From Amphiscolops sp. MND2022 (taxonomy: Eukaryota), in NCBI GenBank assembly GCA_964187785.1, contig OZ076409.1:27716001-27780000 (forward strand): a DNA stretch of 64,000 bases. Reading direction: 5' to 3'. Made by a program: the position numbers and the translations under genes. Shown one piece after another: positions 15,970 through 41,000 of the stretch. The notes under the pieces are model-generated. The model saw nothing but the letters and a program-made list of their open reading frames with translations, made no database searches and was not told the DNA's origin. Each line of letters starts with the position of its first letter. Positions within the stretch are counted from its first letter, which is position 1.

Positions 15970-16520
15970 ATTTACCATTATTTTTTGTAGCTTTCGCTTT
16001 TCAAGTCTGCTTGTTGATCTTCAAAGAACAGATAGTTCGAGTGACAGAATGTTCGTCGTCAAAACATTTGTGGTCACTAATTTATTCGTGAATTTTAAAT
16101 GCGTCTACTACCAGATACCACTTCAATTCAAAAATTATCTAACACTTCAATTGAGCTCTTGAGCACAAGCATCAAATTGACATCTCCACTAACACCAACA
16201 TTCGGGCAAAAGGTTTTTGGAGCATTAGAGAATTCCATTTTCGGTTAATTCTTTAGTTTCAATAAGAATAAAATTGAAAAATTTCGTTGATCAATTAGAT
16301 TGGAATTGAAAAGAGTTCGTTTCCAATCACGGGTCAAATCATTTCGTCGTCCAAAATTTCGTGTCCTGATTTCCGCAAAAGGCTCAGAAAAAACTAGCAG
16401 GTGCACTGTAATGGCAGTCAATTAACTCAACGAAAAACTCGCGAAGCAACAGGATTTTACCCGTTCCGAAATATTTTGGCAATCTCATTTTAGAAAAATT
16501 ACCTCGTTAAATAATGCTTC

Positions 16521-18368
16521 TGTGGTAAGCACGAGTATCTGAGAATGTGAATCCGTCCTTCTCACGATTACCAAGTGTCTTACTCTTCAAATTGTTCCTA
16601 GAGTCCGCATTACGTAGAACTTCGGAATATCCTTCCGGTCTCTCGGACGGTATGTTCCATCTCTCTTTGGTCATATGTCCGGAATCGGCCATAAGGGCAT
16701 TTTGAATCTGGGGAAGAACTTGATTACTAATTGCCTCACTTATAGCTCTTTGAATCTGCACACTGACGCTGTTCATCATCTCATCCATCTCCCGAGATAT
16801 ACGGGAATTCAACTCACTCGACAATCTGTTGATCTCGGCGTTAGAACTACCTCTAGCTGAGTTCTGGCCTAGTTCGGCATTTGGACTAGGTCCATTGTTC
16901 TCAGAGTTAGATAACCTATTTTCATCCTCATTTTCAAATTCGTCGCCAAAAGGACTACCAGGTCTTCTGGCCTGGTTACTATTTAGACTCTCACTTCTTT
17001 CATTTCTATTGTAATGATTTCCTCCAAGCATTATGTCTAAATTCTCAATATCTGACAACATTTCTGCCTCTCTTGATTTTCTCGCTTTCTTTTGTTTCCT
17101 TGTGGTAGGCATTGAAATTGAACCGGGTTGAATAATTCAATTATTAAAACCGGAAAACTGACAAACGTCGTTGTAATAATTCGATCTTTATCAAAGCAAG
17201 GTTATGGAAATTGTGTCCCCCTTTGCAGGAAAGTAACTATATATACTCCTGAAAGATGACACTTACATTCCACGGATTCTTTGATCAAGATAATATCATG
17301 TGGTTATGTCCTCAACGGGTCATGTGACAAATATTATTACGGCATCGGGTATTAATACTTCAAAGCAACTATTTTAGGGTGATGTCCCGATTGGGAAAAT
17401 TCCTAACATTTTACAATCACAACTATTCATTCATCAAAGGCGGCATCAAAATATTTACTAGTGCATCAAATGAAATTTCCGTCTATCAAAGGAACTAGCA
17501 CTCATCATGAATGTAAACAACATTGCACACATTCCTTTCAGGCACGTGCCACCACGTGACCTAAAATTAGCTTTGCAACAGTGTGAAGCACATCATGTTA
17601 TTAGGCCTAATACGGCCAATTGTCATGTTAATAATTATATGCGTTGATTAACCGATTAGCCCCAAATATATGTACTGCATCACTTTTCAAAGGAACGTAA
17701 CAACTTCAATGGCCGGAAATAGCCGGCTAATTAATAGGCAAGTACTAATGAAATATGGCCTTAAGGGCCTAGCAAAAGGGTTGAGTATTAAGACGAAGCA
17801 TCAGTTATGAACAGAGATCTGGCTATTATGAAAACACAAATTCAACAAACATGACTTGTTTCATGTTAAATTATCACCTTATTTCAGTCTTGAACTAAGG
17901 GGACGGAACCGTCCATTTGACCAGTATATTAAAAGAGAAATATTAAAGCACGGCAACTGGCCTTACTCGGCCATTAGTTAGGTATCATCAATAGGCAAGA
18001 TTATATACTGCGATGTGATTGGCTGAGGCAACGTGCTCAAGTGACGCAATCGGTATAGTGCTGTTCGTCACTTGAACACGTTTCCTTTACTGCCTTACAG
18101 TTGCTCGTTTCATTGTATTTTCTATCGCTTTAAATTAGCGCCTTACAACTCCACCAACTCGATTGAAATTTCCAATTGTTAGATTTAACAGACTAATTGT
18201 ATATAAAATGAGCATCATCAATGATCATAATGCACAAAATAACAAAATGGCGTGAAAGTTTGATATCAATTGTAAGTTCTTAATAAATAGGTAAGGTTCC
18301 GGGTACATATTCTTGGCCAACTGCCGAAGTAGTTACTGTCGTGCCGTCACAGGCGGCAGCCTGCGACA
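16521..18368 (-). repeat. 3' LTR (1848 bp)
   Basis: Colinear with 30905-32752; only two substitutions noticed by eye (16524 and ~17449). Confidence 0.96.
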
Positions 18369-19062
18369 CTGCGGGTGTTATGAAAAGGAAGCATCCTGCA
18401 TTAAGCCCATTCTCGTAGGCTTCTTTCCTCAACTTCGTGATGTGCTCGGGCTCGTTCCTTGGGGTGGATCGTTCCATATACCATCTGACTCTCTCACCCT
18501 TGATTGCATCTACAGAGCGGCCGCAAACCATACACCCAGTATATTGGGTCTCGCTGACATTTTGGTAGGGCACCGAGTTCTGCACGTGATAAGACACATG
18601 AAAATCACTTACTGCGGGCTGGACCAGAGGAGTGTCCTGGCTTGGCCCCCTCTCATGGATTGGTGGAGACATCGGTGATTCTAGCACTGGTAGCAGCGTC
18701 TTGCAGAGCTCAATTCGTGATTTCTCCGCTCTCTTTGACGGGGCATAGCACCTTTCGTGATCAAAGTATTTTGTATCTAACTTGGGAGTCACATCTTGCC
18801 CCGGCTGTCTGGTGCTTGGTCCTGTGACCATTTCTTCCTCCATACTGCTAGTCGTCATGACACGTCCGGCAATTAGAATGGGGCTGGACACTACCTGCTT
18901 CTCCACCCTTCTGATCATTTCGTCCGTGTCCGTCGACCAGTCTGAGTCCAAATCAACTGAGGTTTCCTCATCGCTGCTTATGTAAATGACTGAATCGCCT
19001 GATGAGTCTGAGTCCAGTTCAGCCATCTCGAAGAGCTTTCCAGATTTTGCGTATTTATCCAT
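18280..19062 (-). CDS. Accessory ORF3 of the Gypsy element (~260 aa from first ATG); acidic N-terminus with VIYISSDEE motif; function unknown
   Basis: Uninterrupted ORF with TATAAA ~70 nt upstream. A positional counterpart with VIDISSDEE lies at 63201-63935. Confidence 0.75.
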   Translation of the reverse strand: MDKYAKSGKLFEMAELDSDSSGDSVIYISSDEETSVDLDSDWSTDTDEMIRRVEKQVVSSPILIAGRVMTTSSMEEEMVTGPSTRQPGQDVTPKLDTKYFDHERCYAPSKRAEKSRIELCKTLLPVLESPMSPPIHERGPSQDTPLVQPAVSDFHVSYHVQNSVPYQNVSETQYTGCMVCGRSVDAIKGERVRWYMERSTPRNEPEHITKLRKEAYENGLNAGCFLFITPAVSQAAACDGTTVTTSAVGQEYVPGTLPIY

Positions 19063-19110
19063 GATGAATTTTTTAGCTATTTTGAAGTTTATGAAGGCAA
19101 CTAGCTGCAA

Positions 19111-19957
19111 GTGAGATTCAAAGTTGAATGAATTTATAAAACTCTCCTCAGGCCGACTCGGGCCGTTTTCCCGGGGTTTCGTTTCAGCGGCAGAATCTTT
19201 GGTTAATCGGTCTGATCCGTCGTAAACTTTTCTGAATGGGGTTTCTCAGCGGCGGTTCACCCTTTGAATATCGGAACGCTGCCCCCCGAGCCCACCCTCT
19301 CAAGTAGGTAATCAGAGAGGTGTTAAGTTAACAACAACAAATAACTCCACTTCAAGAGGGTAATTAACATCAAGCTTGATAGCAATTAACGGCACGCGTC
19401 AGATAAAGCCTACTAAAATGGCTTCAGCCAATCAAATTTGAGCTTCGATAAATTTGAAAAATGAATAATAAAGATGGCGAAAAATAATAATTTGAATAAC
19501 TAAAATGGCGAAGATTCAGCTAAGGTAATTAGGGTAACTAGACAAAACGACAAAACAAAATAGGTCAACTGGCCATAACCGGCCTCTAACTAGTTAAGCT
19601 GTAAATAGCAAAGTTCTTTGCACATTTCGCTGGCAGACTCCATGTACCGAATAAATATGTAGATAATTAAATAATATTAGTCTGGTAATTTCTTCAGCCA
19701 CGACCTCCAACTTTTATCTCCTTTCAATTGTTAACACGCATTTAGTTCCATTACCATTTAAATTGTTTACATTTGTATCCTTCAGTCTTTGCTATTCCGC
19801 TTTCCTTATCTGGGTCTTCAACTTCGTTGCTGGCTTCTTCTTCCCTTTACGGAGCCCTCCGAGCCTCTTTCTTTCATCAGCCGTGTTCGGCCGTCTTCCC
19901 CATACTCTTCATCCGAATTTGGATAGAATCCCTTAGGACGAATTCTTCCACAACAGA
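19111..19957. promoter_or_regulatory. Putative internal bidirectional promoter between ORF3 and the antisense gene
   Basis: Lies between two divergent starts. TATAAA on the minus strand at ~19133-19138; AGCCAATCA (CCAAT box) at ~19426. Confidence 0.45.
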
Positions 19958-22900
19958 ATGTCTTCAAAAGCAGGTTGGTCTGGGTTTTCATATTTTTGAA
20001 CTAGTTTAACTTGATCAGAGCTAAGTTTGTTCACTAATTGCTTCCTGTTTCCACTACTTGGTGAACACGTGTTGATCACGTCCGTTCAGAATTTCGAACA
20101 CTTCCGGAAGTTTTCTAATGCGGCAAATGGATTTCTATCAAGGAAGCATACCGCCAAATTTCATCTCCTTCTGTTTAGAAAACCAGACAAGTGATGAGAC
20201 CCAAGTCCCAGCCAACCTAAGTCTAGACAACCCTGTTGAAACTGTAGTGTCAGCTCCTCATACCTCTGTTCTAACGCAATCCCAAGAGACCAAAGGGAGC
20301 ACGGATAGCGAGGTTGATGTGACTACTTTCGCCGATGAGATGGTAGACATGATGGAGAAAGCTCAGACGACAATTGCTCGCTCCCCAGATGATACTGCCA
20401 CTGTCACTTCCACTGGTGCGGATGACCGAACTCAGGAGAGGACTGAAACATTAGTTCAGGAACTAGTCAGGACAAGTACCCCAATGCTCCCTGATGAGGA
20501 AGTGTTGACCCAGTGTAACTTGTCTGCATTGGAGTCTGCACTCAGAGTAGCCACCTCGTCCAATTCCCAGCTCCCGGAACTTGTGGCCGTTGTAGCGTCA
20601 CCTCCCAATGATGAAACTTTAACCAGGGCGCAATCTGGAGATGATAACGAATCCTCAGTGTACGAAGTCCCTGCTCTACCCGTCGAGAAGCCCAAAGTCC
20701 TTTATCTTACGGATTTCAGTGGGAGTGAGCAAACTGCAGATGAAAGCAGCTTAGCAGGATGCCCTCCTTTGTACGGAACCAACCCACTGGAGATTGAGTC
20801 GGGAGCTGAAGCAGGGGGTGAGACTGGCATCAATCCCTCACATTCGGTGCTCAGTGACCAAGACGGCGTGCCCCGGAGACAGCAAGGTGACAGGTTTCCT
20901 GAATTATCAGGTAGGACTCGCGCCATCCTCAAAACCTACTTTGACGATGCACAGCCATTCTCTTTGCCCCTCGGACATCCAACTGTGGCTTTTACTGAGC
21001 CACAGATGTACCACCTCTTAAGGTCCCTTACTGACGAGACTATCCGAATGTCTTATACCACGATGGAGCGAATGGTGTTGGACGCAGTAAAGGGCACCCC
21101 GACCGTGGCCCCGTCAAGGACCAGTCACTTCCAGACTAGAGTTCGAGCCCCCACTCCCTTTGGATGCAGTGAATCAAGTGACGATGAAACCGATAACCTC
21201 ACTGGGGCCTGTCCCTTAGCTGGTTCCTCGTCTGGAGCAGAAGGCACTGATACATCCGCTGGGTTCGAAGACAGTGATAGTTCCGGAGAGATGGCTCTGA
21301 TCACTGAGACATTCAAGAAGAATCTCACGACGGATCTAGGACCAAATCCCTCACAGCAGTCCGGAAGCCAGTCCCAACAAGAAGAGCCTGGCCAATCAGG
21401 CTTCAGCAGCCAAGATGCCACGTTGCTGGAAGTCCGCGATGAGGCCCTGGAACGCAAATCCAGAACAACTACCAAGACGCAGAGGCAGAAACGCATCAAG
21501 CGCACCACCCACAGAGGAGTCCCCATGCGCGAAGAATTCTTTGCAAAAATAGGTTGGACAAGGTCCTTCATTTCTGGACCCGCGGACCCCATCCACAATC
21601 CTCTGATGGTTTGGTGTCACATTTGCAAGAGAAACTTTTCCATCCGCAGCAAAGGCACCATGGAAATCCTAAGACACCACCGTTCAGAGAGGCATCTAAG
21701 AAAGGACCAGAGGTGGCGATATGAGTACCTAAAGAGTGTTGATCCCGTCACCAAGCAAGTCCAGCATCGTGTAAGAGGACGAAACGGAAGGCTTCTGAAT
21801 AAGATTGAGTTAGCCAGAGAACTCCCACGTTTCATCCATTCAGAGCTAGTGGACATTGGGGAACGATTCCCCTTTTATGACGATTTTATCCAGGGACGGA
21901 CCACTGCCATAGTCACCCCAGAGTCCAGGTCCAGGACCCAATTGGGCATCGTCATTGACTTCCTCAAGGACCAAGGCGATTTTGCGATGCTACGCAATCT
22001 ATGGGCACGCCTTAGTTCCTTCACAGACTACCAAGCTACTCTCTGTGACTTCGACTGGGGGGAAGAACGTATGACGGTAAGTTTTTTATTTTCCCTACTT
22101 GTAGGTTGACTCAATCTATTCTGCATTTTTGAAACATTCGTCTGTTTTCCAGACAATCTTCCAGCACCTGTTCAATTGTGCTATGAGCGAAATAGCGGAG
22201 TGCGTGGCTGCAGAACAGTGCTTTGCCATAGAATTTGAAGACAGCAATGTCAATCGCTTCATGTCTCTTCGATTCTGGAAGGGGACTGAATTGTGTCGCG
22301 TCCTCGTCTGTCGCAGCGAGCTACCCTCTTCGGAATTGTCAGGAGAACTAGGGTCTCTCTCACGGCTCCTATCCGCAGTCTCCACCAATTGCGGTGTGGT
22401 GGCTTGTTCTGGCTGCCCCGTTGACTTTGTCAGGACAATCGACCATTCCCCACTCTTCTCAAGAGCAGTGCAGGCGTCCTTCCGGTTTGAGACCTTGTCC
22501 CTCTCCAGACTGATGCACAAACCCAGTTATAGTGTCTTCGGGCATATCGACTTCTTTTCGGTCCTACATGCCTTACTCATCACCCTGGGTGGATCTCTCT
22601 CTGAGGATTGGGTACTGCAGAGCCCCACCTTATCTCAGGTAATGACTTTCCGATTATGGTAGGAATGTTGTACCTTGGACAGATAGGAGACCCTGCTTAT
22701 TTCCCTTACGGACACTAATACAATACGTTATTTAGGCCATAGCTTCATGCAAATTGGATCTTCCCACTCTTCCTGCCCTATGTCAGGAACTTATCATCGT
22801 CTGGAAGTCCGTTGTGCGCTACCTAACGGAGCACTCACCCCGACAACAAGGACAGGGGGTTCGAACGAGAGTAAGTCCACTAAGAGATTGGTTTTCCTTC

Positions 22901-24295
22901 CCTTTAGGTCCCAACGTTAAATTTCGGTACCTTTCAAAATGTCTTCATAATCCAGGCTAACTGATATTTTCCCATTACAGGCGCAGAGCTTTGAGTGGAC
23001 CCTCATCTGTGATGAGTTCTTCACCATCAAATTGGAATTCTTTTGCAAGCTCGTCAGTGACTGTTAGTATCACTACTTAGCCTCCTCTAGGACGTGTCCT
23101 TAACTCATATATAAGGTCCGCCTTTGTTGTAGATACTTCCAGTTTTGCGGTCAACCTGCAACAGCGACGAGATGGGTCCTTCTTCCTGTGTGGTGAGGTC
23201 TCTCGTTACATACATCAACTCTGTTTCCGGATCTACACCGCTGATACAGTCCCATTGGAAAATGCATGGTTCCAGCTCCTCAATTTCCGTACTTCAGACG
23301 GAGTTTTCATCCCCGAGGCGGAGTTTCTGGCTCGTCTCAAGATCACCAACAAGGTCGCAACAGCCAGTAAGCAGAGGTCAGAAGGGGTCCATTCTGGTCA
23401 AAAGACTGAGCGTTCAGTAATTCAGAAGACAGCGGAGGCAATCAAGTCCAAGTTTGTCCAAGACGGGCAAAACTACCTGAAGTACCTATTGGGAGAGGTC
23501 CTCCATGAACCCGGTCTTAGCTCCAACATCATCAAAGGTCTGGCTGCTTTTGACCCAACTGTCATGCTCAAGAGGCCAATCGACATTGCTCTTAAGCACT
23601 TTGAGTTGTTATACAGCACTTTCCTCCTCCGCTCTTGGGTCCTCGAGGCCGATGAGTCAGCTTGTCGGGATGATTATTTGGCTCTTCTAGATCATCTTCG
23701 AGGGAATTACCCCCCTACCTTTGACGTCACCAGTGTCTCTCGAGACTTGATTGATTTCATGATGACCTTGGACTTCCTTCAGTCACGGGAGCGGCTTCTT
23801 TATTTGTTTAAGCTTTGCTGTCTGTGTGCAACCTCTGTTACCCCTACTTATCCAGTAGTAACTGCCGGGAGTGTGAGTACGGCGGGTCACCGAGGCAGAT
23901 TTACCGATGTTATTCTGCCTGTCCAGAGTTATGTAAGCTCAGTTCCTGGATCAGCCGCTTTCTGTTGTAATGAAGCTAATCTGTCCAAGTTTTCTTTATT
24001 CGCTTCCTCCTTTGGACGATCTGCCTTCTCAGCCGATTACGACCCTTGGACGTACGTTGACGATTTTGGCCGTTCCAAAATTTACAAATCGCTGCTGTCC
24101 ACCTACAAGTCCATTCTCTCTGTGCCTAAGGCAGTTTCCACTGAGGCAGGAACCAGGGGCGACGATAGTGTCGCCGATGAATGTGCTCTGAAAGCCCCCA
24201 GCGCTAGCAAGCGCAGGAGGATGAGTCGGAGCGCTTCCCGATCTAGGACCTCTTCTGTCGTGGATGAGTGTGTCCCCAGTTCTTCTAAAAACTAA
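19958..24295 (+). CDS. Spliced antisense accessory gene, ~1259 aa: disordered acidic N-terminus, zinc finger, degenerate hAT-transposase-like body. Exons 19958-19973, 20179-22076, 22153-22638, 22736-22870, 22981-23062, 23133-24295
   Basis: All five introns are GT-AG with consistent phases (1,0,0,0,1), giving 3780 nt with no internal stop. WCHICKRNFSIRSKGTMEILRHHRSERH zinc finger. Homologous to 58801-61628. The 16-nt first exon is the least certain part. Confidence 0.85.
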
Positions 24296-24570
24296 ATGTA
24301 CATATGTAATTATGTACAACCAGTTGTAAACTTTGTTGATTTCTTTCCGTTTCTGTTATATTTTTTATTTCTTGTTGTTGTATTTATTTGTATTCCATTT
24401 GTTGCCAATTTCTTGATCCCATATTATTCCCTTGAAGGGATCATTGTCAAACGTCCCGATATTTATTCAAAAAATACCACTTTCTGGGACTGAAAAGAAA
24501 AGAAGTAATGATAAAAAGGAAGAGAAAAGATAGTTCGGCGTCCGTTTTCGGGCACAATTTAATCTTTCCT

Positions 24571-27500
24571 TTAGTATCTAAAGTCTTCTGAGTAGTTAGG
24601 GGTAGGATTAGGCCTGAGATTATATTTCCCAGCTCTAGGACTCAGATTTTCATTTCCTTCTTCATTTTGCGATATTTCGGGCACGATAATATCATCCCCC
24701 CTATTTGGAGAATTTTCTGCATCTTTTTCATTCATCAAATTTCTTTCTGGAAAATTTGCATCGTCTTTTAGTCCTTCAGCCGTATTCGGCACAGATTTTT
24801 CTTGGGTTTTTGGGGAAACGGCCGGATTTGGCCAATCAAATTCGTCATTTCTAATAGCTTCAGTAGCTTTATTTCTTTTAGTGACGTCATCAATTAATCG
24901 TTCATTCCGGCTATGCGACGCGCGGTCAGTGAAATTTGATTCGTCACTCGTGATTACATAATCAACTTCATTCTCGCTTGCGTCACTTGCATTCGGTTCT
25001 GCCGTAGTCGGCTGTTCGTCATTCGTCAAGCTGGTCGGAATAGGCTCGCTGCCTCGTGTGTCTAGTTGTTCGCCAAAGTTTGTTTCCCACGTTATTACAT
25101 ACAAGTCGTCTTGCGGAATGATTATTTCGTCATCCGGCTGTAGACGCTGTTCTCGGAAATTGTCCTCAAGTGGTTGATTTGGCACAAACTTTTTGAGACG
25201 AATTCGATGCAATATCTGCGTTTTATTTGTATTAAGCCTTCGGACAATGTAATTCTCATTAGGTAAGGTCTTTTGGACTATAAATGGTCCAACCCAACGA
25301 TAATCCCTGAATGGAATTTTTGATCCTTGATGATCCGCTTTCGGCTGTAATACAAAACAGTAATCGCCCTCTTTGATTGGGGCGGCTTTTGCTTTTCGGT
25401 CGTAATACTCCTTATATTTGATATATGACTGCATGATGTTCTGTTTAGTTTTGTCAATAAGGAGTTTGGTCCGGTTCTGGATTTCTTCTGCGAATTCAGT
25501 AGTCGGATGGATTTGCTCATTTGGATTCATTCCAAGTTTGTGGTCCAAGATGTTGTATGGGATTCTCCCATGGAACACTCTTGTGGGTTCGCATCCGATA
25601 CTGGCATGATAACTTGTGTTATGATTGAGAACTGCTAAAGGCAAATATTTATGCCATTGTCGGCGATATTCCCCACATGCCATTTTCAGGTTCGTTTTTA
25701 ATGAGGCATGCGTTCGCTCTAATTTCCCGATGGTTTGCGGGTGTTTCGTCGTTGCACATTTTAGGGTAATGCCTAAAATCTGTGTAATTTCCGCAATGAT
25801 CGTGGAAGTAAAGGCAGTTCCTTTGTCCGTAATGAGCGTCGTCGGTAGGTAAGAATGTTTCGTCATAATATCAATGATTGCTTTAGCTACATTGATCGCT
25901 GATGCGTCTGTAAGAGGATAAGCAAACAAGTATCGAGAGAAGACATCAATTGCAGTTAAAACATTTTCGTATCCTCCACTTGGGGGAAGATTCGGCAATA
26001 AGTCGATTTGCATGGCGTCTTCAGGTCCAAGGTCCCATTCGGGCAAATTGAGTAGTTCAGGCGTGATTGTTGCGTTTGGGACTCGTTTGTCCTTCGCACA
26101 TTGTTCACACCCTTCTACCCACTTTTTGACATGTTTCGCCATGTTAGGGTAATAATATCTCTGTCTGATCTCCTGCAGCATCTTTGAGATGCCTGGGTGC
26201 TTGTGGGCTGTCCCGTGTAGGGACTGAAGCAATTCTGGCAGCAAGTGTTGCGGGAGAAGAATTTGATGATATTTTATATTCCCGGTTTCGTCAAAATATT
26301 GCCTTGTTAGGATGTCTTCCTTGATGACAATTCTTTCCAGATTATTAGCATAATGTCTGTATCGAGCATCCTGTTGCAGTATGTTTTCTGAGTACTCTTC
26401 ATGAAGGAGCTTCGCCTTCAGTTGTTGCAATACTGTATCTTTGGATTGCTCAATAATTATCTGGTTGGTTTTCCTCAGTCGGACTTGTATTTCAGGTTGT
26501 TGTTTGACTAAGTTAGTATAGAGAGTTTGTATTGTAACAGTAGGTTCTTCATTTACAGGATTTTTCCTGATTGCTTCTTTTCTCGCCCAATATTGTTCTT
26601 CAGTCTCATCATCGTCGTTTGTGTAGAAGATTTGCTCTTCCTGTGAGACTCCGGCTGATTGGACGTTTATTTCTATTGGCAGTGTTTGTACATCTTCGAG
26701 GATTTTCATGACTAATTTGTCCTTCGGTTCGGCTTCCAATCGAGATAAATAATCTGCTGCCGTATTTTGTGCTCCTGGGATGTGCGCGATGACAAAATTG
26801 AACTGAATTACATAGTCACACGCATTCCACAGGGCTGGGGGTACGATTTTCGTTTGGAAAAATCTTGTTACGGCTTTGTTGTCAGTTAGGATTATGACCG
26901 GTTTCGGCGCTCCCCAGAAGATATGTCCAAATTCTTTAAATGCGAAGTAGATCGCGAGAAATTCTTTTGCATAAATCGACATCTTTATCTGGGCTGGGGT
27001 GAAGGTTTTTGAACCATAAGCGACCGGTGCATATGATTTGCGGATTGACGTGAATTTCTGACTCGGGTCATCTTCGATGAGTACTGCATATCCTGCAGCA
27101 CCAAAACTTGCATCTGTCATTAGGGCAATTTGTTTGTTCGGGATGGGTTGTTGTAGGGCCAAGTCGCAGCATTTGTCCAGAGCTCGATTGATTTCCTCAA
27201 ATTGTTGAACTAGTTCCTTGGACACTAGGACTTTTTCGTCACTCTTGAGCATCTTGTAGAACGGAGCAAGGCGTTCAGACAGTCTTGGGACATAATTCCG
27301 GTAGTAGTTCAAGAAACCCAAATATCTTTGTAGAGCCTTTTTCGACTTCGGAAATTTGGTCTTTTCTAGGAAATTCTGAACATTCTGCCGTTGGGGCTTG
27401 ACGCCTTGTGCGGTTATTGTCCTGCCAAGGAAATCGATTTCTGTGGCACCAAAATGGCACTTGTGCATTGTCAATTTAAGGCCTGCCTCCTGGATGCATT

Positions 27501-29784
27501 TGAAAGTTGCTCTCAGGTTAGCAATAAGGTGATCGGCGTCGTTGGCTGCGATGCCAATATCGTCTACATACTGTGCACATTGGTCCGCTTTTATGACTTT
27601 GTCTAGGTACTCTCTCATAAAGCTGGAGAATGCGGACAGTGCCCTACTAAGGCCTTGTGCCAGTCGTCTATAGGCGAATGTGCGGCTTGCAAAGTTAAAG
27701 GCCAGCATTTCGATTGAACGTTGGTCGGCCATGGGAAGGCAATGATACGCCTGTGAACAGTCTAACTTGCAAAAGAGTTTCTTGCCTGCCATGTGTTGGG
27801 CGGCATCGACTAGGGTACTGACTGGATGATTATTGTTAATATAATCATCGGAGATTAGGTTGTTGATTTTTCTCAAGTCAACCAGAAGTCTCAGTTTCCC
27901 ATTCGGTTTCTTTTGTGCAAATATTGGACTGGCGTATTTCGAGAACGGTAGGGTAGTTATGATGCCATATTTGTGGAGCATGGCTAATTCGACTAAAATG
28001 TCCTCCTTCAGGTTAATCGGCGCAGGGAGGCTTTGGCTGTAGGCTGGGGAATCGTCCTTGGGTGTCAACTTCACTTTGAATTCCTCATTCATGCCTATGT
28101 CGAATCTATGTCTTGCAAAGATATCATGGAACTCCACTAGTAATTGTTCAATTTTCTCTTTTTCATCAGGTGTCAATGTGGAGTCTTTCCAGTCAAAGTT
28201 TTCTAGGAATTTTGCCTTAGATTCCTCATCCTTTGTGGGATCGAGTGATTCTAGGTCCTGTAGGGCTTGTAATTCACGGAGTATCCTTTTTTGGATTGGT
28301 GTATGTTCTTCTGGGTTCCCTGGGTTCTCTGGGGTTGGGAACCAGTAGTTTTCGGTATTTTGTGGATTCTTGTTAGTCTTGATGAGACTACTGACGTAAT
28401 GGGCTGCCTGTTCTTGGTCATTTTGTAACAAATGCCAGGTTGAAGCTGGGTCTACTGGTTTGACGTATTTCATCTGCTCTGGCGTCATGACTGAGAAGCT
28501 GGCAATATGGAGTCCCTTTTTGAGCTTGTAAGGGTGGTCTGTGAAATTATTCACCGGTATCTGTATATTGCCATCGTTCAAAGTAACCAGGGCTGGGCAG
28601 AATGTGATGTCTCCTTCTTCATGAAGAAGGTCGCTCGGTTGTAAAATCCCTGTGACCGTGTTTTCAGGGTACAATAGGGAATTGGTCCTAATTAGGACTC
28701 TGTCGTTTGGCGGAATGGTTATTTCGGTAGGGTTCAAAATTGGTTCAAGTACATTCGAGTATTTGTGATCAGCTGTTTTGAGCTGCATCGAAAAGAATGG
28801 AAAGTTCAGTATTCCTTGCCTCATGTCCAAAACTGTATGGTTTCTCTGTAGGAACATCAGTCCTATAATTGGTCCTGTCAAGTGTTCCATTACTATGAAA
28901 ATTTCATGGAATTCTATGTCACCAACTTCAAATTTGAGCTCTATAGTACTCTTTGGAGTCTCTAGTTGCCCATTTGCGACCATTATCTGGAAATTCGGAG
29001 GTGGACCTTCCCGGATGACTGATTGCGGCGATAGGAGCCTGATTTTCCGGAGGTCCATTTCAGGGATTGCACTGGATAAGGCACCCGTGTCAATAAGTCC
29101 ATCTATGGTCAGTTCCCCAAAGTCCATAGGGAAATACAGCATGCGTTTTTTGCATTTCAAGTTTATGTTGGTGGACAGAGGAATACAGTCTGGTTCTCCT
29201 TCTCTGGTGATGAGGATGTTCTGGAACTGACTTTCATCAAGTAGTGAGTGTGGTATTGTTTCTTCTTGTTTGTCTGAGGTCTCGGTCCCCAAGGGGTTTG
29301 GGAATACCGGATGGCTTGTACCATCATTCATCTGCCATGTTTCAATCAATGCTCTGGTTTTCTTGTTATGGGTGATTGGTGGATTGTCATGGACTGATCT
29401 GTTATAGAGTTCTATATCATCAATAACGTATTGGAATTGCAACAAATCCTGGTTATAAAGTTCGGTGTCCCAATAGGGATCTCGTCCATAGTCAGGATCT
29501 ATGTAGGTAGGGTTGTAGTCATCTACCAAGGGAATGGGCCTGAATCGGCTATTGAAAGCAGATGTGTAATCAGGGTCCCATACAGGAATTGGTTTTTGGA
29601 ACAAATGGGTATTATTATAGGTAATAATGGTAGCTTTTTCCATCTGTTGCTGCCAGACAACAGAAGGGTAGCCCATCAGTTGCTGCTGATAGTTATGAAA
29701 GCTTTGAGTTGGAGGGTCCGATTTGATGTATTGTCGGACAGAGACTAATTGGTTATATTGGAGTCGTGGCGAAGTTAGTTTTTT
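24571..29784 (-). CDS. pol: Pol polyprotein (aspartic protease, RT, RNase H, integrase), expressed as Gag-Pol by -1 frameshift
   Basis: LIDTGA; LDCSQAY..YVDD; TDAS..ADYLSR; H-x4-H..CEQC; IDL..TDKG..LERTH; GPF motif. The frame is open from the gag stop to the ATG at 29676. Confidence 0.97.
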   Translation of the reverse strand, partial: KKLTSPRLQYNQLVSVRQYIKSDPPTQSFHNYQQQLMGYPSVVWQQQMEKATIITYNNTHLFQKPIPVWDPDYTSAFNSRFRPIPLVDDYNPTYIDPDYGRDPYWDTELYNQDLLQFQYVIDDIELYNRSVHDNPPITHNKKTRALIETWQMNDGTSHPVFPNPLGTETSDKQEETIPHSLLDESQFQNILITREGEPDCIPLSTNINLKCKKRMLYFPMDFGELTIDGLIDTGALSSAIPEMDLRKIRLLSPQSVIREGPPPNFQIMVANGQLETPKSTIELKFEVGDIEFHEIFIVMEHLTGPIIGLMFLQRNHTVLDMRQGILNFPFFSMQLKTADHKYSNVLEPILNPTEITIPPNDRVLIRTNSLLYPENTVTGILQPSDLLHEEGDITFCPALVTLNDGNIQIPVNNFTDHPYKLKKGLHIASFSVMTPEQMKYVKPVDPASTWHLLQNDQEQAAHYVSSLIKTNKNPQNTENYWFPTPENPGNPEEHTPIQKRILRELQALQDLESLDPTKDEESKAKFLENFDWKDSTLTPDEKEKIEQLLVEFHDIFARHRFDIGMNEEFKVKLTPKDDSPAYSQSLPAPINLKEDILVELAMLHKYGIITTLPFSKYASPIFAQKKPNGKLRLLVDLRKINNLISDDYINNNHPVSTLVDAAQHMAGKKLFCKLDCSQAYHCLPMADQRSIEMLAFNFASRTFAYRRLAQGLSRALSAFSSFMREYLDKVIKADQCAQYVDDIGIAANDADHLIANLRATFKCIQEAGLKLTMHKCHFGATEIDFLGRTITAQGVKPQRQNVQNFLEKTKFPKSKKALQRYLGFLNYYRNYVPRLSERLAPFYKMLKSDEKVLVSKELVQQFEEINRALDKCCDLALQQPIPNKQIALMTDASFGAAGYAVLIEDDPSQKFTSIRKSYAPVAYGSKTFTPAQIKMSIYAKEFLAIYFAFKEFGHIFWGAPKPVIILTDNKAVTRFFQTKIVPPALWNACDYVIQFNFVIAHIPGAQNTAADYLSRLEAEPKDKLVMKILEDVQTLPIEINVQSAGVSQEEQIFYTNDDDETEEQYWARKEAIRKNPVNEEPTVTIQTLYTNLVKQQPEIQVRLRKTNQIIIEQSKDTVLQQLKAKLLHEEYSENILQQDARYRHYANNLERIVIKEDILTRQYFDETGNIKYHQILLPQHLLPELLQSLHGTAHKHPGISKMLQEIRQRYYYPNMAKHVKKWVEGCEQCAKDKRVPNATITPELLNLPEWDLGPEDAMQIDLLPNLPPSGGYENVLTAIDVFSRYLFAYPLTDASAINVAKAIIDIMTKHSYLPTTLITDKGTAFTSTIIAEITQILGITLKCATTKHPQTIGKLERTHASLKTNLKMACGEYRRQWHKYLPLAVLNHNTSYHASIGCEPTRVFHGRIPYNILDHKLGMNPNEQIHPTTEFAEEIQNRTKLLIDKTKQNIMQSYIKYKEYYDRKAKAAPIKEGDYCFVLQPKADHQGSKIPFRDYRWVGPFIVQKTLPNENYIVRRLNTNKTQILHRIRLKKFVPNQPLEDNFREQRLQPDDEIIIPQDDLYVITWETNFGEQLDTRGSEPIPTSLTNDEQPTTAEPNASDASENEVDYVITSDESNFTDRASHSRNERLIDDVTKRNKATEAIRNDEFDWPNPAVSPKTQEKSVPNTAEGLKDDANFPERNLMNEKDAENSPNRGDDIIVPEISQNEEGNENLSPRAGKYNLRPNPTPNYSEDFRY

Positions 29785-31496
29785 GACTCATCATTAGAGG
29801 ATGAGGATTGGGAGCTTGGTGATGTTGATTTGTTTTGTGGTTTCTGCGCCTTTGAATTGGGCTTACCATCATTGGCGTCATCTGGTCTGGTGCGTTTGGG
29901 TTTGAGATGTGCACCAGCGCCTTGCCAACATCTTTCTTCGGGGTGGTTCTTTTTACCACAAGTGCCACACTCCGGGTACGTCTTTTTCTGAGTCTGTTTG
30001 CCTTGTTGGGCATCTTTTTCTTTTTTCTTCTTCAGTTTCTCGCAATCCTTGACCATATGGCCCTTTTCCTTGCAATAATTGCACGTTATGTCACTCATCT
30101 GTACATTGGAAGGAACAGTTTTTGTCTTGCCAACCGAAGATGTCATTGACGCTATAGGTAGGTCGTCAGACTCCTCGAGTGCATTCAGTTCCAGTTCTCT
30201 TTCTAGATGAGCGACGATTTCATCGTAAGAGCCATTCTCTAGTCTAGCCATGTTGACTGATCTTTTGAGCTTTGGTGGCAGTTTTGCGTATAGGAGACTG
30301 TCGATCATTTTTTGGGCATTGTCTCCAAAGGCTTTTTCTGCTCCTTGGTTAAGCTCTTCAAGGAAGTCTGGCAATTTGGTCGTGTTAGGGTCAAAGACTA
30401 GGCGATGCCATTTGTGTTTTGCAGTTGCCTGAGATTCAGGTTTGACGTACTTTCGTCTGAAAATAACAAGTACATCCTCAAGAGTTTGTCTATTGGCGTT
30501 CCTGATGTTTCTGAATGTTTGGAGTGCATTCTTTCGCAGCAAGGAATGGAAGTGATTGATTTTCATTTGTTCGGTCATCTCAGGCTGCATCTTGATCATC
30601 GTATGGAATAAATCCTCAAACAGCTCGAACTTCTCACTTTTTCCGTCGAATGTCATTGTGTTGGAGTTGACTGGGCGGATAGTGAGTTGTTGGGCCGTTG
30701 GACGGTTCTGCATACTAGTCAAAACATCTGCTAGCCTGTTGATGGGGTCTTGTTCTGATGCCAGAGCGGGTCGTTCTTGTGCTGGGATCGTCGTGTCGAG
30801 CAGCGGAAGGTCATCGCAGGATCTGTTGAGATGACTAGTGGATGGCATTCGTCCTGTGAGAAACTCAGGAACTTCAATTGGAGATTCGTTTTCTCCTGTC
30901 ACCATGTCGTAAGCACGAGTATCTGAGAATGTGAATCCGTCCTTCTCACGATTACCAAGTGTCTTACTCTTCAAATTGTTCCTAGAGTCCGCATTACGTA
31001 GAACTTCGGAATATCCTTCCGGTCTCTCGGACGGTATGTTCCATCTCTCTTTGGTCATATGTCCGGAATCGGCCATAAGGGCATTTTGAATCTGGGGAAG
31101 AACTTGATTACTAATTGCCTCACTTATAGCTCTTTGAATCTGCACACTGACGCTGTTCATCATCTCATCCATCTCCCGAGATATACGGGAATTCAACTCA
31201 CTCGACAATCTGTTGATCTCGGCGTTAGAACTACCTCTAGCTGAGTTCTGGCCTAGTTCGGCATTTGGACTAGGTCCATTGTTCTCAGAGTTAGATAACC
31301 TATTTTCATCCTCATTTTCAAATTCGTCGCCAAAAGGACTACCAGGTCTTCTGGCCTGGTTACTATTTAGACTCTCACTTCTTTCATTTCTATTGTAATG
31401 ATTTCCTCCAAGCATTATGTCTAAATTCTCAATATCTGACAACATTTCTGCCTCTCTTGATTTTCTCGCTTTCTTTTGTTTCCTTGTGGTAGGCAT
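29775..31496 (-). CDS. gag: Gag, 573 aa, two CCHC zinc knuckles
   Basis: TFDGKSEKFELFE capsid-like start; CNYCKEKGHMVKDC and CGTCGKKNHPEERC. Confidence 0.95.
   Translation of the reverse strand: MPTTRKQKKARKSREAEMLSDIENLDIMLGGNHYNRNERSESLNSNQARRPGSPFGDEFENEDENRLSNSENNGPSPNAELGQNSARGSSNAEINRLSSELNSRISREMDEMMNSVSVQIQRAISEAISNQVLPQIQNALMADSGHMTKERWNIPSERPEGYSEVLRNADSRNNLKSKTLGNREKDGFTFSDTRAYDMVTGENESPIEVPEFLTGRMPSTSHLNRSCDDLPLLDTTIPAQERPALASEQDPINRLADVLTSMQNRPTAQQLTIRPVNSNTMTFDGKSEKFELFEDLFHTMIKMQPEMTEQMKINHFHSLLRKNALQTFRNIRNANRQTLEDVLVIFRRKYVKPESQATAKHKWHRLVFDPNTTKLPDFLEELNQGAEKAFGDNAQKMIDSLLYAKLPPKLKRSVNMARLENGSYDEIVAHLERELELNALEESDDLPIASMTSSVGKTKTVPSNVQMSDITCNYCKEKGHMVKDCEKLKKKKEKDAQQGKQTQKKTYPECGTCGKKNHPEERCWQGAGAHLKPKRTRPDDANDGKPNSKAQKPQNKSTSPSSQSSSSNDESKN
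29778..29784 (-). promoter_or_regulatory. -1 ribosomal frameshift slippery heptamer A AAA AAC
   Basis: Minus strand reads TCA AAA AAC TAA. The -1 frame continues CTA ACT TCG...CTG ATG GGC into pol without a stop. Confidence 0.85.
30893..30904 (-). promoter_or_regulatory. Putative primer binding site TGGTGACAGGAG
   Basis: Starts with TGG immediately after the 5' LTR end; 11/12 match to a tRNA-Leu-type PBS (TGGTGTCAGGAG) recalled from memory. Confidence 0.6.
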
Positions 31497-32752
31497 TGAA
31501 ATTGAACCGGGTTGAATAATTCAATTATTAAAACCGGAAAACTGACAAACGTCGTTGTAATAATTCGATCTTTATCAAAGCAAGGTTATGGAAATTGTGT
31601 CCCCCTTTGCAGGAAAGTAACTATATATACTCCTGAAAGATGACACTTACATTCCACGGATTCTTTGATCAAGATAATATCATGTGGTTATGTCCTCAAC
31701 GGGTCATGTGACAAATATTATTACGGCATCGGGTATTAATACTTCAAAGCAACTATTTTAGGGTGATGTCCCGATTGGGAAAATTCCTAACATTTTACAA
31801 TCACAACTATTCATTCATCAAAGGCGGCATCAGAATATTTACTAGTGCATCAAATGAAATTTCCGTCTATCAAAGGAACTAGCACTCATCATGAATGTAA
31901 ACAACATTGCACACATTCCTTTCAGGCACGTGCCACCACGTGACCTAAAATTAGCTTTGCAACAGTGTGAAGCACATCATGTTATTAGGCCTAATACGGC
32001 CAATTGTCATGTTAATAATTATATGCGTTGATTAACCGATTAGCCCCAAATATATGTACTGCATCACTTTTCAAAGGAACGTAACAACTTCAATGGCCGG
32101 AAATAGCCGGCTAATTAATAGGCAAGTACTAATGAAATATGGCCTTAAGGGCCTAGCAAAAGGGTTGAGTATTAAGACGAAGCATCAGTTATGAACAGAG
32201 ATCTGGCTATTATGAAAACACAAATTCAACAAACATGACTTGTTTCATGTTAAATTATCACCTTATTTCAGTCTTGAACTAAGGGGACGGAACCGTCCAT
32301 TTGACCAGTATATTAAAAGAGAAATATTAAAGCACGGCAACTGGCCTTACTCGGCCATTAGTTAGGTATCATCAATAGGCAAGATTATATACTGCGATGT
32401 GATTGGCTGAGGCAACGTGCTCAAGTGACGCAATCGGTATAGTGCTGTTCGTCACTTGAACACGTTTCCTTTACTGCCTTACAGTTGCTCGTTTCATTGT
32501 ATTTTCTATCGCTTTAAATTAGCGCCTTACAACTCCACCAACTCGATTGAAATTTCCAATTGTTAGATTTAACAGACTAATTGTATATAAAATGAGCATC
32601 ATCAATGATCATAATGCACAAAATAACAAAATGGCGTGAAAGTTTGATATCAATTGTAAGTTCTTAATAAATAGGTAAGGTTCCGGGTACATATTCTTGG
32701 CCAACTGCCGAAGTAGTTACTGTCGTGCCGTCACAGGCGGCAGCCTGCGACA
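30905..32752 (-). repeat. 5' LTR (1848 bp)
   Basis: TGTCG...CGACA terminal inverted repeat; direct repeat of 16521-18368. Confidence 0.96.
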
Positions 32753-34549
32753 GCTTCTAATAATAATCCTTTTCAAAATTAAACTCTCTTGGAACACTTT
32801 TACTCATACGGAAATAAAATTATTGTCCAAATTCGAAATAGATGCGAGCTCCTTGTGGAAGTCTGTTTGAAGCAACCAAACCTTGCATCTTTGAAAAAAG
32901 CCTTCAACGAAAAACCTTACGTTTTCGTTTTTAGACGAATGGTATGTGCTGTTCAATTTATTCGCTACTACTGTACGCCGTAATGTTTCCCGGCCACAAT
33001 TGTTTCAGCGATAGCATTTTTAAGGGCACTGGGATAGAAAATTCACTTCAAAAATTGGACCAAAATATCAGTTTTTAAAAGTTATTTGCCCTGTGTTTAT
33101 GTCCGGAAGATCCAATATAGGTGGAGGAAAATAGACTTTCGGATAAATTCAACTTGTATAAGAAAACAGTTTTCCGAGTTATAACGGATGAAAGTTTTTA
33201 AATAATTGTGGAAATGACCGACACTTTCAACGGCACTGCGGTTTTTTTGAAGAAATAATTTCGTTTTTTTTTGCGAACTTAGAGGGTCTCTTTCTGAGAG
33301 TTTTTCTGCACTTTGAGTCTTTTCCTGACAAAAAAATTATTTTGAAAATTGGATTGTTTGTTTCGCATAATTTCAGCGCAGTAAATTTGATAAAGTTTTC
33401 AACAATAATGTTCTTTCACATATTCAAAGACATATTTTTGGTCCTATGGAAATGATGAGAGATTTTTTTATAATTGTGGAAAATTCGTTCGGTTTTTTCG
33501 GCACTGTGAGACTTTTCTTGTGAAACTTTTTTTTGGTCAAAAGGTACCCTCTCCACTTTTAAAATGTTTTCGGCGTGCAAAAACATTTGTGAGCTTGAAG
33601 CTCCTTTTTCTGTACTCAGACACTTTTTCTGAAGAAAAAAGTTTTGGAAAACTTTCATTTTCAAAAGACGTTTCGGATGTTTCCAGTTAGAAAAAAACGG
33701 TTTTCAAGTCTTATGAGCATCATTCCAGTTTTTTCCACAAATGAAAATTTAAATGATATTTATTAAACTTGGTTTTTGAATCTTCAGCAGGACGTCAGCG
33801 TGTGCTGTTCCCGGTTCGTTACTTTTCGTTTCATTTTGAAACGAGGGATGAACCTTAGTTTTAAAGCGGCAACTGATGTCATTTTCACTATAACATCCAT
33901 TTCGGTGGAACATGCGCTATCATGCGCTATATCAAAAATGGATAGAATTATAACAATTTGTCTAGATCTTGGAGGGAGGTATGCCGGAATTTGCATTCAT
34001 TCAATGTCGAACGCTCGCATCCTTCGCATTCTAACAGTTTTGTTTGATCACAAGACTTTTGCGTAGGTACTTGCGCATTACGGACTAAAGTTTGTTTTTG
34101 TCGTCGCGCAACCTTCTCCAAAAACCCAAAAAACGAATCCAAAGTTGATATTTTATTTCGCTTCTACCTAAGTCTCAGTAAATAATAGCTTTTGGAATAC
34201 ATTTTCGAACGTTCAAAAGCATTCGCAAAAAAAGTTCGATGAAAAACTTCAATCTTTTCAAAACGTTCATGTTCACAGCTTTCGCAGTCAAAGGTTAGGA
34301 TCGGTAAAATAGTGAGTCGAACAATTGTAGTTTTGTCTGTTTTGCGAGTTCATGACCACTTGTTTTGGCTCTAAATTTTAAAACCACCTTCTTAGCTTTG
34401 TCAACGTTGTTTTTGAGTGAAAGGTTTTGTTGTACTTGAAAATTAACCCAAAATTCCAAACACTGTGAGCTCTTTCAATTGAGCTGTTGTTTTTTAAACA
34501 TCACTGACACTTTACGAACCTTTCCAATGGAGAAGATGATATATTTTGC

Positions 34550-38158: not shown

Positions 38159-41000
38159 TCAATGATTTGATTTCTCCAAATAAGGGTGAGCTGTCTGAGA
38201 CTGGGTAACGTCTATCAAAATGTTAGTTGCATCATTCCTCCTGCTGGTGTATCCGTGTACCAAGGGCTCATCTGGAAGGACTTCGAGGAACCGATCAAAT
38301 TCTGATTTAGACAACTCTAGACCGCAGTTCGTCATGTTGCTTAGATGCGATGGTAAGCAATGGAACATTTTCGAACAATCCATGAGGCAATTGGATGATT
38401 TGAGGGTTTTGATTCGGGTTCTCGCATTCTGATTGATTGTACGAACGATATATAGCCTACCAGTTCTGGGTTCAGAGTGCCTCGAATGCATTCTGTAGTG
38501 ATATTTGGCTCCATATTCTCTAAGACACACACAATTATGTATGTTTCCCGTCTTCTTTCGACGGAAGACAGCTGGAATAAGTTCTGTAGTCGCTCCCAGT
38601 GATCAAGTTCATTTAGTCCATCGATGCGGCGGTTGAAATACTTTTGTAGGATCTCCAGCTTGTTGATCTCGCCTTTCCTCTTGGGACTCCACAATCGACA
38701 ACAGTAGTCTAAATGTGGGATTGGAAGAGATTTCCAAAAGTGTATCATCACTACAGATGTTCGGGTGTGGAGCCTTGGCAGATTGGTGAAAAAGTTGATT
38801 GAGCGTTTGAGACAATAGTTTCAATGTGTAACGTCAAGGTTGCATCGTGACTCATAGGTATTCCTTCATTCATTTTCTTCAATGGTGGTTCGGATACTAT
38901 TGAAGTATTGCGTTTGGTTTTGATTTCATCATCAACACCGTAGCGCAGAAGTTCAAACTTCAGGCTATTAAATTCAATGTTGTTTCTGTTGTTTCTCTCA
39001 GCCTACTCATAGACTTGTTCCAGCTTCAGTCGGAGGGCTTTAACTTCTTCTTCATCTTCCTTTTTGTAACTTTAGTGTCATCGGCGAAACTTTTGAGTTT
39101 TGAAATTTTCAAGGTTTTGGTCAATTTCCATTTTGAGGACGAAAAAAAGAAGGAGTCCCAGCACTCTACCTTGTGGTACTCCCGAAGACACGTTACCTGC
39201 TTTGAATTATAGTCTTTCACTACAACAGATTGCGTTCTTTCTGTAATGAAAGAGTTGATCCGATTGTGTAATTTGTTTTTCACTACAATGTTTTCTAATT
39301 TTAGAAGGACATTGAAATAAATTTTATCAAACACTTTAGCAAAGTCAAGGTGAACTACATCAGCATTGCTATATTTTTCTGTTTTCAAACAATTCATTAT
39401 GGTGAGCTAGGAGTTGGCTGAGACACGACTTACTCTTCTTGAATCCATGTTGAGAACAGATGAAGCATTCGCTTCTTCAAAGGGATGCACCAGATTTTTT
39501 TTACACAACCCTTTTAAAAATTTTGATGATATGCGAAGTCAGTGCAACTGGTCTGTAGTTTTACGAGCCAAGTTTACTTTCGCCTTTGCGGATTAGTGTG
39601 ATCAGAGCATGTTTAAGTCCACTAAGGACTTCTTGTTTGTCAATACATTTGCACCAAAAATGAACAAGAGTATCGAGAGAGCATCTATGCATTTCTTCAC
39701 AACATCTGCAGGGAAAACATAAAACTCAGCAGCAGCATCAGCAGCAGTCGGCGTCAAATTGTCAATTGCTTGTGCAATGCCTACAATATCAAATTTGATG
39801 TGATCAATGGTGACAAGAACCATCGTGTTTGAAGAAGTGTGGTTTTTCCGAGGGTACTGTGTAGACAGAATGCACTGTAGAGATGATGAATCAGCTTTTC
39901 TATTTGTTTCCTGCACCAATTCCCCTTCGTCATTTTGGAGCGGACCCACCGGTGTTCTGTTTTCCGAAAATTTACTTATGTAGCATGTTTATTCATGTAA
40001 CTTCGGATTCTATTTGATTGCTTTTACAGCATCATTTTCTCTTATCGCAGCTATTCTGACAGTAAATCTCAACTTCAATGTGCTTTTTCCGGAAATTCTG
40101 GTACTTGTCAGGAGATTGCATTTTCTTCATCAGCTGAATAATCTTTTTCTTCTGCGGCATAGGTTCAGTCATCTCCTCGACGTTCGACTTAATATCTTCT
40201 TGTGCATCTTTCTCAAAGGGACATTTTCTCTTGCAAACGCTAGTGTGACACCTAGCAGCTGTGTTAGCATTTGTTCAGTTGTCTTGTTCCGGTATTCGGC
40301 ATTCCAATTGTAGCTCGCGAGTTTTTCGTTCAATCTCGTCCAATCAAACTTTGGGTCATATAAATTGAGTGCGCGAATTCCACTCGGTTGTAGAGATTTG
40401 ACATACACTTTTTGTTCTATTTGAGTTGTTACCTCAACAATTGAGTCGTGGGTTACCATTAGAAGGCAAGGGGTTACTTGTATTTCTAGAATCAAGTCAT
40501 CATTGTTAATGAGCACGAGGTCAAGTGTGTTTCCATCTTTATGGGCTGGCTGTGTAACATATTGCTCAAAACCAAATTCAATTGTGAAGGATTCCATTAC
40601 TGCCGCCATGTTCTGGACTTCCTTAGAGCAAGTCGAACGTGTTTTTTCAAGCCAATCAATAATGAAAATGAAGTCTCCTACGAAGACTGTCTGCGAACGG
40701 ACTATCGACAGGTCTCATTATTTCAGTTAAGGAACGCATAATTTCAATATAATGAGTTGTGTTTGATGGGTGCCCGTGGACATCATCATCTGGTTGCATA
40801 AACACAGCGATCAAGGGAAGGTTTTGAATCTCTGAGTAGAGGCACAAACATTCGATGACACCATTGGTAGCACTGAGAACAGTTTGTATGTTCACAGCAA
40901 CGTCATTACGGACGTAGAACCCTACACCTCCACTGTCGCGTGTTTTCTTTTTTTCTCCTTTCTGTTGGCCCTAAAAATAGTACACCCTCCGATGTTCACA
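38159..41000 (-). pseudogene. Decayed CR1-group LINE ORF2 (APE + RT), many frameshifts
   Basis: GNTLDLVLIN (APE); HLDFAKVFDK; SFADDTKV; IPHLDYCCRLWSP; LSSVERRRE. Confidence 0.85.

Follow-up and report, generated by a model that had tools for sequence, protein, structure and literature searches.

The 64,000-nt stretch of Amphiscolops sp. MND2022 DNA analyzed here (contig OZ076409.1; G000:C1:27716001-27780000; hereafter the window) is part of a 1.07-Gb genome. It contains a complete Ty3/gypsy-type long terminal repeat (LTR) retrotransposon, E1, at 16521-32752 on the minus strand, and a truncated relative, E2. Both carry a long gene with predicted introns on the strand opposite to gag and pol (Table 1). 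It is highly likely that this antisense gene is real, spliced, and an integral part of the retrotransposon. The observations as a whole are best explained, with a probability of about 0.85, by an integral antisense gene whose introns are carried through copying and in which a disarmed transposase is reused. An earlier note on the window had reported three introns at common positions in E1 and E2 and one intron in E1 alone. It had proposed that these introns, being antisense, escape removal and have been inherited vertically for a long time.

Removal of introns A to D of E1, none of which has a length divisible by 3, leaves a single stop-free frame. The spliced proteins of E1 and E2 show 187/776 identities (24%), with an alignment score of 387 against a maximum of 62 in 100 shuffles. 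The coordinates of introns A, C, and D were verified, and the spliced-protein alignment agrees with the earlier note that they coincide in codon and phase. Intron A lies 6 residues past an invariant W in both elements. The exon between introns C and D is exactly 82 nt in both (22981-23062 and 60242-60161), and the phase-1 intron described after it is present in both (23063-23132 and 60160-60024). By chance, all three introns would match to within 1 codon and in the same phase with a probability of ~1.4e-7; none of 2,000,000 random placements did so. Intron B is present in E1 and not in E2, as reported, and the E2 junction is clean. Alignment of the upstream DNA revealed intron 0 and a short first exon in both elements. 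Four intron positions (0, A, C, and D) are thus common to E1 and E2, instead of the three noted earlier. E2 has three additional 5' introns, all in phase 1.

The last exon of E1 has at least 108 matches in the genome, and that of E2 at least 145. Distant queries of the genome added further lineages of the antisense gene. A set of loci was chosen by hand for diversity (60 of 10 kb and 7 of 5 kb), and 62 gene models were built from the 60 loci, E1, and E2. The purpose-written spliced aligner required only GT and AG, had no positional prior, and was seeded by E1/E2-derived proteins. Intron positions are conserved across the 62 models. Intron A is exact in 62/62 models, intron C in 59/62 (displaced call in 3), and intron D in 49/62 (displaced call in 6, precisely absent in 7). 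Intron B is exact in 28/31 E1-side models, displaced in 2, and precisely absent in one, L091; it is absent in 31/31 E2-side models. Intron B may have been either gained or lost in the split between the deep clades, and the unrooted trees are compatible with both. The intron 0 motif, CAG/GTTGGT..TGATCA, was observed in 48/62 loci, with the acceptor TTTAG or ATTAG in the 26 E1-side loci having the motif. The exon between C and D keeps its 82-nt length in 37/38 cases. Among near-identical E1 copies, 29/30 have all four core introns (A to D) at identical codons and the remaining copy has one displaced call, indicating that introns pass through retrotransposition.

Splice signals were summarized for 141 introns in the first 42 models. 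Donors fit GTDAGT (A at +4, 0.86; G at +5, 0.96; T at +6, 0.94), and acceptors are T-rich, though the aligner required GT and AG alone. Intron lengths range from 56 to 230 nt independently of frame, and 137/141 would break the frame if retained. The mean GC content is 0.39 in introns versus ~0.50 in exons. The YTRAY branch-point motif is found near the acceptor in 56/141 introns versus 257/936 exon windows, a comparison uncontrolled for AT content. These introns are probably spliceosomal introns of the U2 type, with predicted junctions. T at donor +3 occurs in 40% of the 141 introns (GTTAGT), which is unusual compared with the common GTRAGT and may reflect the host splice code. The interior of intron 0 (19974-20178 and 62608-62497) is more conserved than the adjoining exons. 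It contains TGATCA in both clades; E1-clade copies also have the palindromes CACGTG and CTTCCGGAAG, and E2-clade copies have TGACGCGTCA. Intron 0 may be a promoter or enhancer of the divergent sense open reading frame (ORF), or an RNA signal.

Exons are joined gap-free in homologues lacking an intron. These include the library proteins P0008, P0022, P0077, and P0106, continuous across D, and P0143, continuous across C and D. The clean joins confirm the exon boundaries independently. In P0299, an in-frame intron A is retained as a 53-residue insert. No longer (spliced, full-length) homologue of the last exon was found among 4,646 candidates, and the only one among 7,996 sequences scored with profile A4 is an intron read-through; both are weak negatives.

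Intron D is precisely absent in L085, L090, L091, L092, L098, L101, and L102, corresponding to 3 changes on the gene tree. The proposal that antisense introns escape removal is supported, as the gene is antisense to gag-pol within LTR-bounded elements, but the escape is incomplete: D was lost three times and B once. The antisense orientation slows intron loss without forbidding it. Precise loss requires a spliced template, and these losses thus point indirectly to production and splicing of an antisense mRNA. Models of intron loss based on reverse transcriptase (RT) predict that the most 3' intron is lost most often. D is the most 3' intron and the most often lost; the four events are too few for testing such models.

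The association with the retrotransposon is consistent among copies. Pol is located downstream on the opposite strand in 40/40, 20/20, and 5/7 copies, the last being the shorter 5-kb stretches; the antisense gene is thus convergent with pol in 65/67 fetched copies. Extended copies from both deep clades have LTR pairs in 7/7 cases, 98.8-100% identical, with a 5-bp target-site duplication (TSD) readable in 4/7. Trees of pol and of the antisense gene (53 rows each, quick mode, midpoint-drawn, with neither root nor clade test) agree on deep splits: 26 vs 27 rows; 6, 1, and 19; and 1, 7, and 19. Nine of the 62 were left out for short pol (L044, L048, L054, L055, L070, L072, L078, L085, and E2).

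The antisense coding sequence is under purifying selection. The ratio of nonsynonymous to synonymous substitution (dN/dS), calculated over ~820 codons for 16 pairs, 4 of them saturated, is 0.04-0.08 in 7 pairs with dS > 1 and 0.07-0.36 in 5 close pairs. For pol, it is 0.02-0.22, and the antisense gene evolves ~4x faster than pol. Sense-strand coding was considered as the source of this conservation and rejected; the longest stop-free stretch there is 94-212 codons in 7 copies. At E <=0.001, a profile search of 1.84 billion representatives yielded 1,162 clusters. Among the best 150 of these clusters, 53 are under 50% identical to any of the 62 models. Ten clusters were looked up and all ten came from ENA, so the antisense-gene family probably extends beyond this assembly.

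The E1 protein is predicted to consist of an acidic S/T-rich N-terminus, a C2H2-type zinc finger from ~aa 485, an RNase H-like core, a helical C-terminal part, and a basic tail. The zinc finger ligands Cys, Cys, His, and His are kept in 59-61 of the 62 models, without a zf-BED match by Pfam. Foldseek analysis of predicted models indicated that the best matches of the core are Hermes (hAT) transposase, at a weak E of 0.002-0.006. Two separately folded exons, also as predicted models, both match Hermes and do so on consecutive parts of it; the Hermes-type structures compared were PDB 8sjd, 4d1q, 8edg, and 2bw3. The domain order, zinc finger, core strands, invariant W, and C-terminal helical domain, is the layout of the hAT ORFs of this genome. 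These modeled structures suggest that the antisense gene was probably derived from a hAT transposase. The invariant DDE triad is not present: with sites assigned from motif layout, the strand-1 site is E in 48/62 models, with D never among the top residues, and neither strand 4 nor the part following the C-terminal KLCCL motif offers an acidic residue. The Ac/Hermes-like hAT ORFs of this genome (L103-L109) are intronless, 597-697 codons long, and some are multi-copy.

Several results speak against the hAT link. The predicted models are of low confidence (mean pLDDT, the predicted local distance difference test score, 52 and 59), and no Foldseek match reached E 0.001 or better. In the VIA ranking for the core, Hermes comes after Pelota and pantothenate kinase, and in a wide VIA search with the core Hermes is not among the 50 matches listed. 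The Atlas recognition score is below threshold, and a second Atlas query pointed elsewhere. Pfam analysis of exons and alignments gave no family at all above cut-off, including the hAT families (PF05699 and others), while the positive control, L105, matches PF05699 and zf-BED. The comparison with possible donors covered 20/150 PF05699 loci of the genome. Six long, intronless Ac/Hermes-like hAT ORFs entered the profile comparison, and neither these nor the remaining ORFs exceeded the level of the reversed controls. Among the hAT loci sampled from the genome, there was neither a donor element nor a host gene sharing these introns. In addition, Foldseek with the last-exon model gave nothing (best E 1.1), a PDB sequence search with the antisense protein gave chance matches only, and a PF14291 donor search gave no match anywhere, with the controls also blank.

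As a mechanism, an internal promoter of the antisense gene would drive its transcription, and the transcript would be spliced to give the mRNA. On the packaged sense RNA, antisense introns read CT..AC and are not substrates of the spliceosome. Because the packaged genomic RNA is the other strand and not a splice substrate, reverse transcription would copy the introns into each new insertion, as the orientation suggests. Comparison among copies shows that selection on the protein preserves the splice sites, with drift inside the introns. Intron loss would most plausibly occur when RT, during plus-strand synthesis, switches onto the spliced antisense mRNA, whose polarity is that of minus-strand cDNA; alternatively, cDNA would recombine with the spliced antisense mRNA or an inserted copy. 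The protein would have lost cut-and-paste catalysis and kept the zinc finger and the transposase scaffold. Its most likely role would be that of a nuclear DNA-binding regulator of its own element, either an activator or an anti-silencing factor, and the odds of a DNA-binding regulator of this kind are about even. Evenly balanced, too, is the full scenario in which a retrotransposon lineage domesticated a hAT transposase together with its introns as a catalytically dead regulator, with losses through RT acting on spliced antisense mRNA.

The integral-gene explanation itself has to be set against some unfavorable observations. Every splice junction is a prediction from sequence. E1/E2 proteins that had been spliced at the sites in question served as seeds of the models, and position calls therefore lean to the E1/E2 sites. 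Two of the 67 copies, both partial, showed no pol within the 5 kb fetched. The pol and antisense-gene trees disagree within two large crown groups, and in one pair dS is 0.07 in the antisense gene versus 0.63 in pol. Since the deep splits agree and the crown groups differ, vertical inheritance at depth with module exchange among close subfamilies is indicated. The long vertical inheritance proposed in the earlier note is thus upheld between the deep clades, but within clades pol and the gene have been reshuffled.

In one alternative explanation, an integral, spliced gene has its origin in an RNase H-fold source other than hAT, either another DDE superfamily or a nuclease-like gene of the host. 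This origin is unlikely, given the matches of two exons to consecutive parts of Hermes and the hAT layout of the domains. The useful product could instead be the antisense RNA, acting in self-regulation through double-stranded RNA or small RNA, with the protein incidental. Transcription across the genomic RNA would form double-stranded RNA, a possibility raised for plant elements (PMC7264820), but the low dN/dS of the diverged pairs and the conservation of zinc ligands and frame across 24% identity make this very improbable.

It is extremely improbable that the breaks are unspliced and the region consists of several separate ORFs or decayed frames with incidental GT..AG ends. GT and AG were imposed by the aligner and the junctions are predicted; however, the donor and acceptor consensus exceeds GT/AG, the flanking exons are fused gap-free in copies and library proteins without the intron, and GC is low inside. 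The least probable alternative is that the gene is a separate DNA transposon, still capable of moving, that inserted into the retrotransposon and hitch-hikes with it. The fold resembles a transposase and nested insertions are common, but the gene occupies the same site and orientation in 65/67 copies, including pol lineages ~50% identical to E1, and has co-diverged deeply with pol. No inverted repeat flanks it in a window self-BLAST at E 1e-5, from which short terminal inverted repeats could escape, and the invariant acidic triad is missing. An integral antisense gene built on a disarmed transposase thus remains the preferred explanation.

Table 1. Features of E1 and E2 in the window. Intron ends and exons are predicted.
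Feature	Position	Strand	Description
E1 3' LTR	16521-18368	-	1,848 bp, TG..CA; includes the sense ORF terminus and duplicates the first ~200 codons of gag
E1 sense extra ORF	18280-19245	-	321 codons; ends within 3' LTR; head-to-head with antisense gene
E1 antisense gene	19958-24295	+	6 exons (19958-19973, 20179-22076, 22153-22638, 22736-22870, 22981-23062, 23133-24295), 5 introns, 1,259 aa
Intron 0 (E1)	19974-20178	+	phase 1, 205 nt, CAG/GTTGGT; common with E2 62608-62497 (phase 1)
Intron A (E1)	22077-22152	+	gtaagt..ttccag, phase 0
Intron B (E1)	22639-22735	+	gtaatg..atttag, phase 0; E1-side clade only
Intron C (E1)	22871-22980	+	gtaagt..ttacag, phase 0
Intron D (E1)	23063-23132	+	gttagt..ttgtag, phase 1; after 82-nt exon
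E1 pol	24571-29787	-	1,738 codons: protease, dUTPase-like stretch, RT, RNase H, integrase
E1 gag ORF	29775-31520	-	CCHC knuckle; starts inside 5' LTR, runs through primer-binding site
Primer-binding site (PBS-like)	30893-30904	-	TGGTGACAGGAG; TGG-starting 12-mer directly after 5' LTR
E1 5' LTR	30905-32752	-	1,848 bp
E2 pol 3' end	57980-58603	+	28-37% identity to E1 pol C-terminus; rest absent from window
E2 antisense gene	58801-62735	-	8 exons, 7 introns, 1,077 codons
E2 introns	62608-62497, 62148-62067, 61937-61861, 61737-61629, 61047-60950, 60328-60243, 60160-60024	-	61047-60950 and 60328-60243 phase 0; 60160-60024 phase 1
E2 sense extra ORF	63093-63935	+	head-to-head with E2 antisense gene

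In E1, gag is followed by pol, and the domain order of protease, RT, RNase H, and integrase is that of Ty3/gypsy. The antisense gene is located on the plus strand between pol and the 3' LTR, tail-to-tail with pol. The LTR pair shows 2 mismatches over 1,848 bp, and the TSD is GCTTC (5 bp; 16516-16520 and 32753-32757). The dUTPase-like stretch, residues ~353-433 between protease and RT, is a weak match (E 0.22); PF00692 is listed for the close pol relatives P0228, P0245, and P0280. Gag starts ~600 nt into the LTR (30905-31520 / 16521-17136) and runs through the primer-binding site, leaving a gag fragment at the end of the 3' LTR, as also in L088 and L091. The 12-mer of the primer-binding site is identical in 7/7 other extended copies. 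There is no tRNA gene in the window. No polypurine tract was found before the 3' LTR of E1 (18369-18390), though the family is young; short G-rich tracts precede the 3' LTR in L075, L088, and L091. The sense extra ORF of E1 has no Pfam match. Its homologues adjoin the antisense gene in other copies and are conserved within clades.

E2 extends from 57980 to the window end and has the E1 layout in the opposite direction, with the 5' half lost. Its antisense gene shows decay, being interrupted in frame by stops at codons 521 and 814. Adjoining the truncated E2, tandem 6.2-kb units at 45532-57339, 92% identical, contain LTR-like repeats of ~880 bp and long K/E/N-rich ORFs of 862 and 964 codons, the first without a Pfam match. 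The C-terminal motif of these ORFs presumably resembles BEL/Pao integrase tails. Beside the E1 insertion, 7613-~16000 contains a host MFS transporter exon (PF07690) and other membrane-protein-like frames. Decayed fragments of a RT/endonuclease of the non-LTR, LINE-like (long interspersed nuclear element) type, judged by eye, lie at 38159-40714 on the minus strand.

Grande, RIRE2, Retand, and the fungal Boty are described as having antisense ORFs in the interval from pol to the 3' LTR, with their origin and function called open; a search for spliced antisense transcripts is called for (PMC7264820). The plant antisense extra ORFs are those of maize Grande (gene23), rice RIRE2, and Retand (Transposase_28, PF04195), as given in PMC7264820, PMC11963269, and PMC6317226. 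The available text of these sources describes no introns in the plant ORFs, and that of PMC11963269 does not contain the word "intron". Like these, the present gene lies at the same place in a Ty3/gypsy element and is kept in most copies. The plant ORFs also resemble what is proposed for it in having their own promoter (Grande), a proposed nuclear or DNA-binding role, and a transposase-named domain. The present gene differs in its 1,077-1,259 codons, 5-7 introns, and predicted hAT-like fold, and it has no match to Transposase_28, whereas the origin of the plant ORFs is called unknown.

The brtn gene of the gypsy element Boty/BcGypsy1 in Botrytis cinerea reportedly lies antisense within the 3' region of its element and is transcribed, with one intron and ~128 aa. 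The present gene has a similar location and is large, while brtn is said to be small. We know of no multi-intron structure conserved across deep lineages, nor of a transposase origin, for brtn. Domesticated ZBED/DREF-type proteins have lost catalysis and retained the DNA-binding scaffold. The predicted zinc finger, RNase H-like core, and helical C-terminal part are like those of Hermes-type hAT transposases. Unlike hAT, ZBED, and DREF proteins, the present protein is kept by a retrotransposon and not by the host, lies beyond the Pfam hAT models, and has a long acidic N-terminus.

HTLV-1 HBZ is encoded by a spliced, polyadenylated antisense transcript and is a nuclear regulator of its element (available text of PMC1459196). 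It is likewise an antisense gene in a reverse-transcribing element, and its intron persists in the provirus; splicing is predicted here. HBZ belongs to a retrovirus and has a 3' LTR promoter, alternative two-exon forms, and a bZIP domain, whereas the first exon here lies ~1.6 kb inside the element. Penelope-like elements (PMC8557442) and Ogre (PMC6317226) retain introns after retrotransposition, according to the available text of these sources. These elements carry the introns on their own transcript, and an unusual mechanism or partial splicing has to be invoked, whereas here orientation suffices. The available text of PMC5408684, PMC12477314, PMC5718144, PMC2774666, and PMC9911081 contains no such case. 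No description of a multi-intron, hAT-like antisense gene of a retrotransposon was found in the open literature, a scope outside which subscription papers, Repbase/Dfam, and supplements fall. The principle of an antisense gene or intron in a retroelement has precedents. No precedent was found in that literature for a gene of this size, for 5-7 introns conserved in position, for precise intron losses, or for a fold resembling that of a transposase.

Coding regions of LTR retrotransposons are regarded as nearly intron-free. The present gene indicates that a full multi-exon gene can ride retrotransposition for long if it is antisense. ORF-finder surveys, which use for example ORFs of at least 250 codons (available text of PMC6317226), would detect such a gene only as fragments. 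For the present gene, recruitment of a class II transposase into a class I element is a candidate origin, and the function is testable. The many subfamilies represent independent, datable intron losses, and for this reason the RT model of intron loss becomes directly testable. If the proposed explanation is true, hundreds of copies record repeated precise loss, RT would use spliced antisense mRNA as a template, and the family would be a natural test bed for RT-mediated intron loss.

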